The notes under the pieces: model-generated
Databases searched by the model: none
Seen by the model: the letters and a program-made list of their open reading frames with translations, nothing else
Told to the model about the DNA's origin: nothing
In this document: positions 33,401 through 39,059 of the stretch, in pieces
Position numbering within the stretch: position 1 is the first letter of the stretch
How the letters are laid out: every line of letters starts with the position of its first letter
Position numbers and translations under genes: made by a program
DNA from: an uncultured Chloroflexia bacterium
GTDB lineage: Bacteria; Chloroflexota; Limnocylindria; Limnocylindrales; CSP1-4
Direction: 5' to 3'
Length of the DNA: 64,000 nucleotides
NCBI GenBank assembly: GCA_963712745.1
Contig: CAVQJC010000017.1
Location: 192,001 to 256,000, forward strand

Positions 33401-34558
33401 GTGAACGAGCCTCCCAGCCGCTTCGACCGTGTCAGCGGACTGCGGGACGTCCTGACCGCCACCGGCGCCGGCATCTACCTGGCTACCCACCAGGCCGGTC
33501 CTATCCCGGTCGAGACGCAGGCCGCTGTCCACGAGTCCGACGAGATGGAGCTGCGCGTCGGCCGAGCTGGCCGCGACCGAGCCGACGACCTCGACCAGCG
33601 CGAACGAGAGGCCAGGGCAGTGGTCGCGGCCGTGCTCAAGGCTGTGCCGGAGCGGATCGTGCTGACCCACGGTGCGGCCGATGCGGCGCGGATGATCGCC
33701 CTGGAGGTTCTCGAAGGCGGCGAGGCGCCGCAGCGTGTGCTGTTCCTGCCGGGAGTGGACAGGGCCATGGCCGCTGCCGTTCGCGACGTGGCCGAAGTCG
33801 CCGGGGCGGAGGTGGAGGTGGCCTCGGATGTGCCGCGCATCATCGCGGCCGACGTGGCGCTGGTGGTGCTGGCCCATGTCGATGCCGACGGCCGACTGAC
33901 CGATCCGGCGCCGGTGGCCGAGGCCGCGCACAAGGCCGGCGCCCGCGTGCTCCTCGATGTCGGCCTCAGCGCCGGCGCGTGGCCTACCGACGTGGCCGTG
34001 ATGGGGGCCGATTTCGTGGTCGCGGAGGTGCACCGCTGGCTGCTCGGTCCCGAAGCGGTCGCGTGCGCCTGGATCACCCCCGATCTCGATCCCGAACTGC
34101 CGGAGTGGCTGCGCCAGGCCTCCGCCGGGTTCGGCCGGGGTGCGCTGCTGAGCCTGGCACGGAGCGTCGGCTGGCTGCTGATGTACGTGGAGTTGCCCTG
34201 GGCCATCGATCGCACCGTCGCACTCGCCGACGGCCTGTACGCGGATCTCGCGGCCATCGACGGGGTCGAGCTGCTGGCTGACCCGGGGGCACACGGGCCG
34301 GTGGCCACCTTCCGCATCAGCGGCTGGGACGCCGAGGGCGCCGTCGACGAGCTCTCACGTAGCATCTTCGCCATCGTCGAGGCCGATGCTGAGGCGGATG
34401 TCATCCGCGCCAGCGTGGGTGCCTGGAACCGGGAGAAGGAGCTGGTGCGCTTCACCGAGCGAGTCGCCGAGCTGGCCGCCCATACGCCCGAGTCGCTGCC
34501 CAGGCGGCCGTCACTGACGATCCTCAGCGGGCCGCTCGATCCCGAGGAGGATGCGTGA
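33401..34558 (+). CDS. Aminotransferase class V-fold protein lacking the PLP lysine
   Basis: IYLATHQAGP, ERIVLTHGA, VLLDVG, GADFVVAEVHRWLLGP, IRASVGAWN align with the SufS/isopenicillin-epimerase fold. Confidence 0.75.
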   Translation: MNEPPSRFDRVSGLRDVLTATGAGIYLATHQAGPIPVETQAAVHESDEMELRVGRAGRDRADDLDQREREARAVVAAVLKAVPERIVLTHGAADAARMIALEVLEGGEAPQRVLFLPGVDRAMAAAVRDVAEVAGAEVEVASDVPRIIAADVALVVLAHVDADGRLTDPAPVAEAAHKAGARVLLDVGLSAGAWPTDVAVMGADFVVAEVHRWLLGPEAVACAWITPDLDPELPEWLRQASAGFGRGALLSLARSVGWLLMYVELPWAIDRTVALADGLYADLAAIDGVELLADPGAHGPVATFRISGWDAEGAVDELSRSIFAIVEADAEADVIRASVGAWNREKELVRFTERVAELAAHTPESLPRRPSLTILSGPLDPEEDA

Positions 34559-34974
34559 CCGACGAGGACGGCTCCGCCCCGGAGTCCACTCCCCAGCGCG
34601 AGGTCCGTCACCGCCCGGAGTGGGAGATCCGCTGGCGCCAGGCGCGCAATGCCCCGCCCCCGGTGGTGCGTGCGGTGCTGGCCAACGTGGCAGTGGCTAC
34701 CGTCGGTGGCATCGTCCTGCTGCTGACCGACTGGCTGGCCAGCCAGGGGGTGCTGCCGGCCTTCCTGCTCGACCTGGGGCCACTCATCTACGTGGCCGTG
34801 GTCATCGTCAGCGGAAGCGTCTTCACCTACCTCTGGGTCGAGCTGCCCACCGGCGTCCCCGGCGAGAAGCGCAGCTCCCCCTGGGCTGCCGTGCTCGGCT
34901 TCTTCGCCAGCATCCCCATCGTCTACCTCGCGCTGGTGATCATCTTCGAGGTCCTGCGCCCGCTCTTGCCGTAG
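34555..34974 (+). CDS. Hypothetical membrane protein (about 3 TM helices)
   Basis: Hydrophobic segments; GTGA overlap with the upstream gene, GAGGAGG Shine-Dalgarno. Confidence 0.7.
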   Translation: MTDEDGSAPESTPQREVRHRPEWEIRWRQARNAPPPVVRAVLANVAVATVGGIVLLLTDWLASQGVLPAFLLDLGPLIYVAVVIVSGSVFTYLWVELPTGVPGEKRSSPWAAVLGFFASIPIVYLALVIIFEVLRPLLP

Positions 34975-35017
34975 TGCCTGCTAGCATCGACGTGTCGCGC
35001 GACGGCGCCACTCCGAT

Positions 35018-35093
35018 GGGGGAGTAGCTCAACGGTTAGAGCGGTCGGCTTATATCCGACTGGTTCCAGGTTCGAATCCAGGCTCCCCTACCA
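35018..35093 (+). tRNA. tRNA-Ile, anticodon TAT (UAU)
   Basis: Cloverleaf: acceptor GGGGGAG/CTCCCCT + A + CCA; D stem GCTC/GAGC; anticodon stem GTCGG/CCGAC with loop CT-TAT-AT; T loop TTCGAAT (one A-A mismatch in the T stem); extended -10 TGCTAGCAT at 34979-34987. Confidence 0.9.
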
Positions 35094-35200
35094 ACCCCCA
35101 GCACTCTGGGCGCCTGGCGCAGGACTCGCGTCACGGACACACGAAGGCCGCGCGGCCGACCCTTTCGAGTCTGCACGCGCGGCCCGTGCTGCAAGCGCCA

Positions 35201-35224
35201 GTCAGCTACCGATCGGTAGCTGAC
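35201..35224. terminator. Perfect 24-bp palindrome, probable terminator between the tRNA and the convergent sugar operon
   Basis: GTCAGCTACCGA|TCGGTAGCTGAC. Confidence 0.65.
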
Positions 35225-35246
35225 AGCACCCGCTTGAGGGTCCGAG

Positions 35247-36251
35247 TTATGCGGCGCAGTTCGGGCTGCTGCCGGGCTCGTCGACCGGAGCGAACTGGTA
35301 GTAGTCGCACGCGTTGTCCGGGGTGAGCAGCACCATGTCGATGTACTGCTTCTCGGGGAGGTCGGTGCTGCCGCGTCTTGATGTAGGCGTCCGCCTGCTC
35401 GGCCGACTGGAGATCGCCATCTCGGCGACCGGCTGCAGCGAGGTGGCCTTCAGCTCACCGGCGTTGATGGACATGATGGCGTCATCGCTGCCGTCGAAGC
35501 CGACCACGATGATGTCATCCATGCCGGCAGCCATGACCGCGGCCTGGGCGCCGAGTGCCATGGTGTCGTTGCCGGCGATGATGCCCTTGACGTCGGGGTA
35601 CTGCTGGAGCAGCTGCTCGGTGACCTGGAAGCCCTCGTCCTGGCTCCAGTTGGCGGTCTGCTGGGCGACCATCTCCAGGCTCGGGGATCTCGTCGAGGAC
35701 GTCGTGGTAGCCCTGGCTGCGGACGCTGCGCGTTGGTGTCCGTGTCGCGACCGGTCAGCTCGATGTAGGTGCCCTCTTCGCCCATCAGCTCGGCCGCAGT
35801 ACTCGGCGAGGATGGTGGCGCCCTGGTAGTTGTTGGAGACGATCTGGGCCACGGCCACGCCGTCCTGCGTGATCTCGCGGTCGACGAGGAAGCTGCGGAC
35901 GCCCGCGTCGGCGGCCAAGCTGGACCGCAGCCACGCTGGCGTCAGCGCCTGCGTTGTCGAGGATGATGGCGAGGGCGCCCTGCGCGACGCAGGTCTCGAA
36001 GAGCTCGGCCTGCAGCGACGGCGTCGTCGTTGTGGACGAGGCGGTCTGGTGCGTGTAGCCCAGTTCCTCGGCCTTGTCCGCAGCGATCTGCTGCATGGCG
36101 CCGAAGAAGGGGTTCTCCACGCCCGGCACGATGACGCAGATCAGGCCGCCCTCGGCCATCTCGTCGTCCTGCCCGAGGCGACCATGCCGGTCGAGGCCGT
36201 GAGCGCCAGGGCAGCGCTGAGCGCCAGCGCGGTGTGCGTCTTGTTGAACAT
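35247..36251 (-). CDS. RbsB-type sugar ABC substrate-binding protein, apiose-like (several frameshifts)
   Basis: Fragments: MFNKTH signal peptide, ENPFF, IILDNAGADAS, FLVDREI, SNNYQG, QTANW, GNDTMALGA, VGFDGS. Confidence 0.75.
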
Positions 36252-36268
36252 CCGTTCCTCCATTCTTC

Positions 36269-37456
36269 TCACTTCGTGGGCCGGCCCATCCGGCCCACTC
36301 CGTTCACTCCTCGGGTGTGTTCAGCGTCGTCCCTGTCGCTCCTCCTTTCAGGTGCTGCCGCTGTCGGCGTGTCGGAGTCGTCTGCGTGGATGACCTGGGC
36401 GGCCTGCTGCTGCAGGGCCAGCCGCCGCTCGGCGCGCTGCTGGAGCTGGTCGATGATCAGGGCCAGCACGATGACGGTGCCGGTGATGATCAGCTCCGGA
36501 ACGACGGAGATGCCCATCAGCGTCAGGCCGTTGTTGAGCGTGCCGATGACGAACGCGCCGATGATCGTGCCGAGGATGGTTCCGCGGCCGCCGGCGAGCG
36601 AGGTGCCGCCAAGCACGACCGCGGCGATGGCGTAGAGCTCGTAGTACAGGCCGATGGCGGGGTGTGCCGCCACGAGCTGGCTGGCGATGATGAGGCCGAC
36701 CGTGGCGGCGCAGAAGGCACTGATCATGTAGACGATCATCTTGGTGCGGTTGACGCGCACGCCCGAGAGTTCCGCGGAGCGCTCGTTGCCACCGACCGCG
36801 TAGACGGCCCGCCCGAACGGGCGTCCGCGTGGTCACGAACCAGGCCACCACCGCGAAGAGCACGAGGATGACGATGGCCCAGGGGACGACCCCGAAGGCC
36901 TCGCCGGTGCCCAGCTCGCGGAAACCGGTGTTGCCCAGCTCCTCCTTGCCGACGAGGTTGGGATAGGTCCCACCGTTGTTGATGATCCCGGCCAGGCCAC
37001 GGGCGACCATGAGCATGCCCAACGTGGCGATGAACGGGGCCACGTTGAAGCGGGTGATGATGAAGCCGCTGACGGCGCCCATGAAGGTGCCCGCCGCCAA
37101 GCGAGATGACCAGCACCATCCAGGTGTGCGGGAAGATGACCCAGTCGGCGACCTGTCAGGCCTTCGTGGATGAGCAGGCCGGCGACGATGCCGGTGAAAC
37201 CGACGATCGAGCCGACCGAGAGGTCGATGCCGCCGGTCAGGATGACGAAGGTCATGCCGATGGCGAGGATGCCGTTGAGCGCCGTCTGCTTGATGAGGAT
37301 CTCGATGTTGGCGCCAGTGAGGAAGGCACTCTCCACCCAGGCGAAGAACAGCACCAGCACGATGAGCGCGATGAAGGCGCGACCGCGGAGCAGGAACTGG
37401 GCGACCTCGGTCCGGGTCATGCCGCGCGTCTTGTCGGCCTGCGCATTCGCCGTCAC
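36269..37456 (-). CDS. Sugar ABC permease (frameshifted)
   Basis: GGIDLSVGS, APFIATLG, YELYAIAAVVLGGTS spread over three ORF fragments. Confidence 0.8.
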
Positions 37457-37491
37457 TGGATCACCTCGACGGTCCCACTTTCATTGCCTAC

Positions 37492-39059
37492 TCAGCTGTC
37501 GACCGCCGGTCCGTGACCGATGGCCGACGCGTCGACCAGCTCCTTCTCGGTCGCCCGGTCGCCCTCGAACTCGGCCACGACCTCGCCCTTGCTGAGCACG
37601 AGGATGCGGTCGGACATGGCCATGACCTCCTTGAGCTCCGAGGAGACGAAGACGATGCCGAAGCCCTCGCTGGCGAGGCGGCTCATGATCTGGAAGATCT
37701 CGGACTTGGCGCCCACGTCGATGCCACGCGTGGGCTCGTCGAGCAGCAGCACCCTGGGCTCGGTCATCAGGCCCTTGGCCACGACGACCTTCTGCTGGTT
37801 GCCGCCGCTGAGCGAGTCGATGCTGTTGCGCGGGATCGGCCACGCGGACCGAGAGGTCGTCGATCATCTGGTCGACCGCGGCACGTTCCTTGCGCAGCGG
37901 ACAGGTAGAACCGGTTGAGGTAGCGCTTCAGCGAGGCCAGGACCATGTTGTGGGCCACCGACAGCGTCGGCACCAGGCCCACCGTCTTGCGGTCCTCGGG
38001 CACGAGCACGACGCCGGCGTCGATGCGGTCGGCCACCGATGCATGCGGCGAGTCCCTGCCCTCGAGGCAGGACCTCGCCGCTGGCCTCGGGTCGGATGCC
38101 GGCGAGCACCTCCATGAGCTCGGTGCGACCGGCGCCCATGAGCCCGTACAGGCCGAGGATCTCGCCGGCGTGGACCTCGAGCGAGACGTGGTCGAGCAGG
38201 TAGCCGCCGCCGAGCCGCGGCAGCGTCACGTCCTTGACCTCGAGCAGCGTCTCGCCGACGTCGTGCTCGGTGCGGCGAGAACAGCGAGGCCGGCGAGCGG
38301 CCGACCATCTGCTCGATGATCCAGGCCACGTCCACGTCGGCGGTCTCCGCGTGGGCCACGATCGCTGCCGTCGCGCAGGACCGTGATGCGGTCGCCGACC
38401 TGCAGCAGCTCCTCGAGCTTGTGGCTGATGTAGACGATGGCCACGCCACGCGCCTTGAGGTCGGCGATGATGCGGAAGAGGCCCTCGACCTCGGCCTGGC
38501 TAAGCGCGGAGGTGGGCTCATCCATGATCAGCACGCGCACGTCGTGCGTGAGCGCCTTGGCGATCTCGACGATCTGCTGCTGGCCGATGCGCAGGTTGCC
38601 GACCAGCTCATCGGGGTCGATGTCCTGGCCCAGCCGCTCGAAGAGCTCGAGCGCCAGCTTCCGCTGCGCTGCGCGGTCGATGGCCGGGCCGCGGGTGATC
38701 TCCTGGGCCAGGAAGAGGTTGTCCAGCACCGTCAGGTTGGTGCACAGGTTGAGCTCCTGGAAGATGATGCCGACGCCGTGCTGGGCCGCGTCGGTGACGC
38801 GTGGGCAGGACCACCGGCTCGCCGTCGATCGAGGATGCGACCGTCGGTCGGCTGCTCGACGCCCGCGAGGACCTTCATCAGCGTCGACTTGCCGGCGCCG
38901 TTCTCGCCCACGAGCACATTGACCTCGGCCTTCGAAGACGTCGAAGGTGACGTCGTCGAGCGCGGTCGTGCCCGGGAAGACCTTGGTGATGTGCTCGGCG
39001 CGCATGGGTACGCGCAGCGACATCGGCTGCGGTGTGGCAACCGGCGCAGCCATCGTCAT
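37492..39059 (-). CDS. Sugar ABC ATP-binding protein, two NBDs (frameshifted)
   Basis: [47 protein letters not shown] across fragments. Confidence 0.85.

Follow-up and report, generated by a model that had tools for sequence, protein, structure and literature searches.

Lysidine formation by TilS is regarded as nearly universal and essential in bacteria. Nine bacterial species from three clades lack tilS and carry tRNA-Ile(TAT), and 371 TAT tDNA sequences have been found in metagenomes (Taniguchi 2013, PMC3575796); going by the genera named in this source, the clades are Tenericutes, Bifidobacterium and Neorickettsia, and further taxa may be listed there. A 2026 paper terms tRNA-Ile(UAU) a rare case (PMC13752280). 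No report of TilS-less decoding of AUA in Chloroflexota was found in the literature searched, with subscription journals largely outside it. Here, we describe a gene for an isoleucine (Ile) tRNA with a genomically encoded UAU anticodon, located at positions 35018-35093 (plus strand) of a stretch of 64,000 nucleotides (nt) from an uncultured Chloroflexia bacterium of the order Limnocylindrales (positions 192,001 to 256,000 of contig CAVQJC010000017.1, assembly GCA_963712745.1; the whole stretch is called the window). Its product is very probably the sole decoder of AUA, charged with Ile, in an order that has lost both TilS and the canonical tRNA-Ile2(CAU).

The tRNA-Ile(UAU) gene and its conservation

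The 76-nt gene is the single tRNA called by ARAGORN in the whole window (tRNA-Ile, anticodon tat), and the Rfam covariance model RF00005 matches it at 35018-35090 with 63.5 bits (E 1.9e-11; gathering score 29). Its acceptor stem (GGGGGAG / CTCCCCT) begins with a G1-U72 pair and is followed by the discriminator A73 and an encoded CCA; the D arm pairs GCTC with GAGC, the anticodon stem GTCGG with CCGAC, and the T stem CCAGG with CCAGG, where A51 (35068) stands opposite A63 (35080). The anticodon TAT (tRNA positions 34-36) is at 35051-35053 in the loop CTTATAT, which holds C32, U33, A37 and U38. The tRNA-Ile identity, the TAT anticodon, A73, the encoded CCA and the loop had all been read from the bare sequence in a preliminary description of the window, and all are present by ARAGORN, Rfam and the sequence.

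Contigs of three independent public runs (X1, X2 and X5) span the tRNA. They list no other letter at 35051-35053, and within the tRNA they list differences at 35037, 35043 and 35061 only; an unlisted position in this comparison is not proof of identity, and X1, X2, X4 and X5 are contigs, not reads, for which the uncovered part 35103-35250 and the depth figures carry no information. A C at 35051, which the preliminary description had named as a refuting result, is listed in none of the contigs of the three runs (contigs, not a read pile-up), and the T at this position is no sequencing error.

Searched with the 76 nt as a DNA query, 21 of the 24 same-genus genomes gave a full-length copy (93-99% identical), and 3 of the 16 genomes of sister family f2 gave a copy that is 82-83% identical; identity falls as low as 78% in further genera of family f1 (26/36 at E up to 1e-9). 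ARAGORN called tRNA-Ile(tat) in 48 of 48 fetched loci, which hold 34 distinct sequences. Over these 34 orthologues the cloverleaf is paired in 99.2% of cells, both sides have changed in 9 of 21 pairs, and the observed covariation score was reached by none of 500 shuffles. The anticodon loop reads CTTATAT or CTTATAC in every one, with C32, U33, UAU and A37 invariant and a pyrimidine always at position 38, and the divergence of the copies tracks genera across the order. The gene is real and is under selection for its structure. A pattern of acceptor stem, D arm and CTTATA found at least 118 stretches in a collection of species-representative genomes; among the 80 pattern matches listed, nearly all have Chloroflexota or Limnocylindr- titles and 3 have other phylum labels.

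The position of the gene is conserved along with its anticodon, the two comparisons with relatives that the preliminary description had proposed. Among 80 loci of the ATP-dependent DNA ligase gene, 29, from several genera, have the tRNA downstream of the ligase and in the same orientation, and TAT is kept in all 48 orthologues. Nine more distant ligase loci have tRNA-Ser(cga) in that place, 8 of them titled Dormiibacterota/Dormibacter or, in the old style, Chloroflexi/Chloroflexota. Two features that the preliminary description had singled out as odd, U38 and the A-A mismatch in the T stem, have fared differently. Position 38 is a pyrimidine (U or C) throughout the order, and so a conserved trait. 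The mismatch is present in the window copy and is not a family trait, A51-A63 being the sole unpaired cell at that pair among the 34 sequences (18 others have A-U and 15 U-A). The nearest relatives, loci L006 and L007, each depart from the window at one of 35068 and 35080, so that the A-A pair looks like a pair-flip intermediate, a mixed-strain consensus or an error.

TilS, tRNA-Ile2(CAU) and isoleucyl-tRNA synthetase

TilS was sought with the model of its N-terminal domain (TIGR02432) at the curated cut-off. Nothing was found in the window's own genome, and no match over the cut-off in 24 same-genus or 16 f2 genomes, which gave only matches of about 20-24 bits; those in f2 sit in open reading frames (ORFs) of mostly 528-546 amino acids. 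A draw of 120 genomes from the class, each at least 85% complete, covered the window's order (families f1 and f2) and its sister families (f3-f5). TilS passes the cut-off in 0 of 36 f1, 0 of 5 f2, 37 of 38 f3, 39 of 40 f4 and the single f5 genome, the 77 matches among the 79 sister-family genomes having E values of about 1e-45 to 1e-52. A TAT-tRNA pattern (YTTATAN{12,18}GTTCRANYC) run on the same draw matches in 36/36 f1, 4/5 f2, 0/38 f3, 0/40 f4 and 0/1 f5 genomes, and its reversed control matches nowhere in the 120 genomes. Many of the order's genomes without TilS are 90-97% complete and assembled in 2-10 contigs. Two sister-family genomes (G123 and G124; 91% and 88% complete) have neither a TilS nor a TAT match. 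Genomes flagged as unpublished (G095, G115, G132 and G123) are included in the class tallies, and the pattern is the same without them.

The tRNAs with a CAT anticodon follow the same division. The window's own genome has two only, one with the initiator GGG/CCC anticodon stem and one elongator-like. From 30 f1 loci taken with a CAT pattern, 23 CAT tRNAs were obtained, 8 of initiator type, 15 of elongator-Met type (13 with the acceptor stem GGCGGAG, 2 with GGCTGGG) and none of Ile2 type; the listings for the same-genus genomes G001, G007, G009 and G010 likewise hold no Ile2-type CAT tRNA. Five of five high-quality TilS-bearing genomes have, besides initiator and elongator, a third CAT class with acceptor stem GGGCCC[A/G] and discriminator A. 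This class is read as tRNA-Ile2(CAU), an assignment by acceptor stem and phyletic pattern and not by an isotype model, and it was found only in TilS-bearing relatives. The preliminary description had suggested that this lineage decodes AUA without TilS and had pointed to tilS and tRNA-Ile2(CAT) as the genes to look for. Neither was found in the window's own genome, and the suggestion is supported order-wide by TilS in 0/41 genomes against 77/79 in the sister families and by an Ile2(CAU) class that occurs only with TilS.

At the tilS locus itself, an elongator-Met-type CAT tRNA lies directly upstream of tilS in five TilS-bearing genomes (G054:C4:504565-505409, G046:C4:84224-84990, G044:C20:124284-125125, G121:C50:1936-2592 and G052:C42:26242-26891). 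An initiator tRNA is also at the tilS locus in G044 and G052, and the tilS contig of G121 has one about 1.8 kb upstream.

In a wider sample of Chloroflexota (300 genomes at least 90% complete, and the window's own besides), TilS passed the cut-off in 275 of 301. The 26 genomes without it are the window's own, 16 of f1, 3 of f2, and G180, G218, G242, G331, G349 and G364. ARAGORN confirmed a tRNA-Ile(tat), here with the loop CTTATAA, in three of the last group: G218 (C150:24803-24877) and G242 (C14:39425-39498) of family f35, with genomes of 4.4 and 5.7 Mb, and G331 (C43:58604-58680) of family f56. All three also carry the C-terminal domain of a type 2 isoleucyl-tRNA synthetase (IleRS), and the losses of TilS in f35 and f56 are probably independent. 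G180, G349 and G364 have no TAT match either. A TAT tRNA together with TilS was confirmed in G156, G249 and G388 (the last flagged unpublished). The phylum-wide TAT pattern gave many chance matches in lower-GC genomes, with control matches similar in number; 10 tRNA-like matches were picked by eye and 6 of them confirmed by ARAGORN, and the TAT counts outside the order are a minimum.

The TilS-less order and the sister families with TilS alike have a type 2 (eukaryote-like) IleRS, as judged by Pfam DUF5915 at the C-terminus and by MupA/MupB-like NCBIfam scores. The best PDB matches are entries 8c8u-8c9d (P. megaterium IleRS2), and 8C8V is cited as a P. megaterium IleRS reference structure (PMC13752280). 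In that enzyme, Q961, R964, K965 and L969 form the ARD3 pocket beside base 34, and R964A abolishes charging (PMC13752280). Yeast IleRS2 recognises U34, G34, I34 and pseudouridine 34; its Arg999 has been modelled bonding O4 of U34, and C34 without the needed acceptor (PMC11685878). Pocket residues were placed by HMMER alignments to the P. megaterium chain and an alignment of 40 sequences (16 TilS-less, 24 TilS-bearing). The R964 site is R in 16/16 TilS-less and 24/24 TilS-bearing sequences, the Q961 site is Q in 16/16 TilS-less sequences and Q (16) or N (8) in the TilS-bearing ones, and the K965 site is K or R in the TilS-less sequences. An IleRS suited to a UAU tRNA would thus already have been in place in the class, and the charging of this tRNA with Ile is predicted from it. 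A specific adaptation of IleRS to U34 was considered and rejected, the G34/U34 pocket core being the same in both groups. The site of P. megaterium V952 is acidic in 16/16 TilS-less sequences (15 D, 1 E) and in 0/24 TilS-bearing ones; since the TilS-less clade is monophyletic, this residue may be plain ancestry.

Two further features of these enzymes were observed. Pfam and NCBIfam models match the N-terminal half of the TilS-less IleRS in two stretches and not one, suggestive of an inserted or divergent segment in that half. The IleRS of the class reads GP(I)TAN..MG(V/I)H(H/S)(A/G)W (e.g. L166:877-4233, minus strand, and G000:C10) at what appears to be the place where the HIGH signature of class I enzymes is expected. 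In IleRS2, departures from the canonical HIGH confer mupirocin hyper-resistance (PMC13752280).

Six representative TAT tRNAs were compared with other classes for their origin. The nearest is elongator tRNA-Met (acceptor stem GGCGGAG), with a mean global identity of 0.75-0.76 and with G1-U72, A73 and 6 of 7 acceptor pairs in common; recruitment from a duplicate of elongator tRNA-Met is therefore possible, as a lead from 76 bases, too few to settle it. Descent of the gene from tRNA-Ile2(CAU) through a C-to-T change is unsupported, as identity to the sister-family Ile2(CAU) class is 0.69-0.71, the acceptor stem differs and elongator tRNA-Met is nearer. Kinship to the own tRNA-Asn (81% over positions 4-62) was treated as chance, the shared anticodon stem occurring in this genus only.

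AUA codons, the wobble uridine and competing explanations

Codons of the window's own genome were counted in 2576 stop-to-stop ORFs of at least 200 codons, with a codon-position GC filter against shadow frames. ATA occurs 588 times (0.62 per 1000 codons, 1.4% of Ile codons), in 487 of the 2576 ORFs, and is commoner than ATT (0.40 per 1000); AUG stands at 18.7 per 1000. The in-frame ATA codons that the preliminary description had pointed out in the ATP-dependent DNA ligase ORF (32035 and 32785) are present. The ATA rate is similar to that of Burkholderia cenocepacia, which keeps TilS (PMC12514573). The meaning of the codon was examined in 17 aligned gene clusters, at columns where ATA occurs and at least half of the other sequences share one residue. 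In loci of the TilS-less order the majority residue is L in 5, V in 5, I in 3, T in 1 and M in 0 of 14 columns; in ligase loci it is V in 5, L in 4, I in 3, and M, A, R and Q in 1 each of 16 columns. The profile of ATA columns is closer to those of ATC and ATT than to that of ATG, and in this small sample it fits AUA being read as Ile.

Enzymes that modify U34 were searched in five genomes of the order (the window's own, G007, G042, G077 and G025). MnmG (GidA) does not pass the cut-off in any of these, nor in five TilS-bearing sisters, which makes its absence look class-wide; Elp3 is found in 0/5 and MnmA in 5/5 order genomes. With MnmG and Elp3 not found, a U34 with the usual C5 side chains is unlikely, and wobble uridines may go without any C5 modification throughout the class. 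Paired UNN/CNN tRNA sets, e.g. Lys TTT + CTT and Arg TCT + CCT, would fit an absence of C5 modification. By analogy with Mycoplasma mobile, in which it has been measured, an unmodified U34 would be the simplest reading. Position 38, a pyrimidine in 34/34 sequences of the order, where the other Chloroflexota TAT tRNAs have the loop CTTATAA, would be a candidate tuning element. A more doubtful proposal is that UAU is kept off AUG by undescribed means, either a new U34 modification or a tuning of the loop through C32 and pyrimidine 38. For such a modification, the candidates are 2-thiolation by MnmA extended to the UAU tRNA, or an enzyme acquired along with this tRNA.

The order has lost TilS together with the tRNA-Ile2(CAU) in which it forms lysidine, and carries the genomically encoded UAU tRNA in their stead. 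From the gene to the ribosome, we infer the following course. Transcribed from its own -10-type promoter, this tRNA would be charged with Ile by the type 2 IleRS through the pocket Q..RK, whose Arg, modelled in yeast on O4 of U34, would exclude C34, and U34 would then pair with the A of AUA on the ribosome. AUG might be avoided by an unmodified U34 with ribosomal discrimination and competition from tRNA-Met, as in M. mobile, or by tuning through the conserved pyrimidine 38; these two options appear the likeliest, as neither MnmG nor Elp3 was found.

The arginine tRNAs have a peculiarity of their own. The window's own genome has Arg tRNAs with GCG (twice, G000:C1:375580-375655 and C2:65874-65949, outside the window), TCG, CCG, TCT and CCT, and none with ACG. 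For the CGN arginine box the decoder is thus tRNA-Arg(GCG), whose loop is TTGCGGA, instead of the usual tRNA-Arg(ACG to ICG). In five of five Limnocylindria genomes (G007, G042, G077, G025 and G054) tRNA-Arg(GCG) is present and there is no tRNA-like ACG match. TadA-like deaminase matches of 78-105 bits (cut-off 150) still occur in 3 of 5 genomes. Bacteria generally have ArgACG and are without ArgGCG (PMC8007984).

Several observations weigh against decoding of AUA as Ile by this tRNA alone. All genomes are metagenome-assembled genomes (MAGs), for which TilS counts as not found and not as proven absent, and the window's own has a rated completeness of 84.55% and a contamination of 5.03%. No TAT tRNA was found, by DNA search and by a looser pattern, in three same-genus genomes (G003, G006 and G010; 74%, 64% and 91% complete) or in G029 of f2 (91% complete); G010 is also without an initiator tRNA, which makes incomplete assembly the likely cause there. 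The syntenic orthologue L028 reads TAG and not TAT. This copy (L028:6746-6821, contig DATHSE010000117.1), with the loop CTTAGAT and a body that is that of the L006-type copy save for one base, is called by ARAGORN as a 76-nt tRNA-Leu(tag), and its TAG may be an assembly error or a real anticodon mutant. The 14 + 16 columns on codon meaning are not all independent and formally leave room for Met or Leu, and the enzyme search took in MnmG, Elp3 and MnmA, with the pathway to uridine-5-oxyacetic acid (cmo5U) and undescribed enzymes outside it. Contigs of the RNA-library run X5 span the gene, yet DNA can sit in such libraries. Finally, the type 2 IleRS and its pocket are common to the TilS-bearing sisters, and are therefore a permissive background and no specific adaptation.

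A redundant TAT tRNA, working beside a TilS and a tRNA-Ile2(CAU) that were missed as divergent or unassembled, would put the order with Lactobacillus casei, which has both systems. The incompleteness of the MAGs speaks for it, as does the co-occurrence of TilS and TAT tRNA in G156, G249 and G388 and in bacteria named elsewhere (PMC3575796). It is nonetheless very unlikely, because TilS passes the cut-off in none of the 41 order genomes in the first set (own + 40 relatives) and none of the 41 in the class draw, many of them 90-97% complete, while the same model finds it in 77 of 79 sister-family genomes at E values of about 1e-45 to 1e-52, and no Ile2-type tRNA occurs among the 23 f1 CAT tRNAs or in the f1 and f2 listings. 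Reassigned or ambiguous AUA, in which the tRNA would carry Met or some other amino acid, or would read both AUA and AUG, is improbable as well, if a little less so. Wobble rules let an unmodified U34 pair with A and G, with E. coli ribosomes the tRNA-Ile(UAU) of M. mobile misreads AUG (PMC3575796), and the closest paralogue class is elongator tRNA-Met (0.75-0.76, G1-U72 in common). On the other side, the ATA columns are V, L and I with M in 1 of 30 and a profile like that of ATC/ATT; C34, the dominant determinant for MetRS (PMC12514573), is absent here; and with AUG at 18.7 per 1000 codons general misreading would be costly.

Assembly quality bears on a different proposal, that the TAT arose as a C-to-T error in an Ile2(CAU) gene or that the gene is a decaying pseudogene. 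The assembly is frameshifted (IleRS in at least 3 pieces, fragmented ABC transporter genes), and the A51-A63 mismatch is in this copy only. We give this proposal practically no credence, as TAT stands in 48/48 orthologues and at least 118 further stretches of public genomes, no other letter is listed at 35051-35053 in the contigs of three runs, the tRNA body is unlike the Ile2(CAU) class (0.69-0.71, with a different acceptor stem), and Rfam scores 63.5 bits although one of the five T-stem pairs is mismatched. Rare-codon tRNAs are frequent cargo of phages and islands, and GC dips slightly downstream of the gene (0.705 to 0.671), which would suit a tRNA brought by a phage or mobile element and standing outside the host's core decoding set. 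Such an arrival is extremely unlikely for a lone tRNA with no mobile-element family (Pfam) among 17 ORFs within about 6 kb either side, a post-ligase position in 29 of 80 loci, an order-wide distribution, a divergence that tracks genera and a conserved host-type upstream box.

Surroundings of the gene and comparison with known systems

The tRNA is single and chromosomal, with no phage-type tRNA array, and the 17 neighbouring ORFs (about 6 kb each side) match ligase, aminotransferase, LysE-type exporter and ABC sugar-transport families (Pfam). The housekeeping surroundings claimed in the preliminary description, without a phage array, are thus borne out by a lone tRNA syntenic after the ligase. 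So is its extended -10 box. The promoter-like sequence TGCTAGCAT (TG, one base, TAGCAT; 34979-34987, plus strand), about 30 nt 5' of the mature end, would serve as such a box; of 20 same-genus loci, 18 have TAGCATC ahead of the tRNA, mostly after TG or TGN and at varying distance within 90 bases upstream, in flanks otherwise unalignable, and the other 2 have one-base variants. A scan around the gene for sigma-70 consensus promoters, which demands a -35 hexamer, called none, and a terminator scan there called none. A GC-rich palindrome, GGCCGCGCGGCC, lies at 35146-35157 (plus strand), about 55 nt 3' of the tRNA, in the context GAAGGCCGCGCGGCCGACCCT; it recurs 3' of the tRNA in 8 of 20 same-genus loci and has no T run after it and no terminator call. 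Upstream, the class-V aminotransferase (33401-34558) was considered as a sulfur donor for U34 and set aside, having only weak, non-specific NCBIfam matches (up to 31 bits), and the 139-amino-acid ORF at 34555-34974 has no family match.

The window's own genome comprises 4.22 Mb in 20 contigs with about 68% GC. Its IleRS gene (G000:C10, ~155020-158500, minus strand) is split into at least 3 frames, and the ABC sugar-transporter genes downstream of the tRNA (35247-39059, minus strand) appear as a partial Peripla_BP_4, two BPD_transp_2 pieces and a partial ABC_tran, which points to assembly indel errors or pseudogenes; because of indel errors in the own assembly, relatives were used for questions that need intact genes. 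Contigs C1 and C2 share a run of seven tRNA genes in identical order, suggestive of a duplication or of two strains binned together.

A whole order of abundant soil, sediment and freshwater bacteria without TilS, with at least two other Chloroflexota families that appear to be likewise, offers a natural comparison for the conditions of TilS loss, for type 2 IleRS as a permissive step and for the way in which a U34 avoids AUG, and it does so in a free-living organism with a full-sized genome. For this group, TilS is unfit as a universal single-copy marker or as a drug target. Annotation pipelines should expect two CAT tRNAs in these genomes and not three, and completeness estimates that count tilS score them too low.

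The canonical system of TilS and tRNA-Ile2(CAU to lysidine) does the same job, reading AUA and not AUG as Ile, and is used by f3, f4 and f5; its TilS and its Ile2(CAU) class were looked for in the window's order and not found. A laboratory counterpart exists in Bacillus subtilis, in which a suppressor of a tilS deletion, a G34-to-U change in tRNA-Ile1, lets a UAU tRNA replace TilS in a free-living bacterium (Kohrer 2014, PMC3919564). That suppressor derives from tRNA-Ile1, whereas the gene described here is natural, ancient and nearest to elongator tRNA-Met. Eukaryotic cytoplasmic tRNA-Ile(UAU) likewise has its anticodon recognised by an IleRS of type 2, with a conserved Arg as the means (yeast R999; PMC11685878), and the site of yeast R999 and P. 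megaterium R964 is Arg in 16/16 sequences of the order. In eukaryotes U34 and U36 become pseudouridine (psi-A-psi; Chen et al. 2024, PMC11685878).

Among bacteria, M. mobile tRNA-Ile2(UAU) shares with the window tRNA the lack of tilS, an encoded TAT in place of CAT, A37 and, very probably, its standing as sole AUA decoder (PMC3575796). Its IleRS is of type 1, adapted by one Trp-to-Arg change (R865), and in Limnocylindrales the enzyme is of type 2; an unmodified U34 and ribosomal discrimination have been demonstrated for M. mobile (PMC3575796) and are candidates in Limnocylindrales. M. mobile is also a tiny AT-rich parasite, in contrast to a whole order with genomes of 1-4 Mb and, in the window's own, 68% GC. 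Bifidobacterium genomes have a high GC content. The preliminary description had thought TilS-less decoding unexpected in a high-GC genome; it is not without precedent, Bifidobacterium being TilS-less (PMC3575796). Bifidobacterium and Neorickettsia combine TilS loss, tRNA-Ile(TAT) and a eukaryote-type IleRS, and are the closest match in logic (PMC3575796). The present case differs from them in phylum and in that sister orders with the same IleRS type have retained TilS, placing the swap at the base of one order. The class of mechanism is thus already known; the novelty lies in the lineage, in a scale that takes in an entire order and two families besides, and in the contrast with sister orders.

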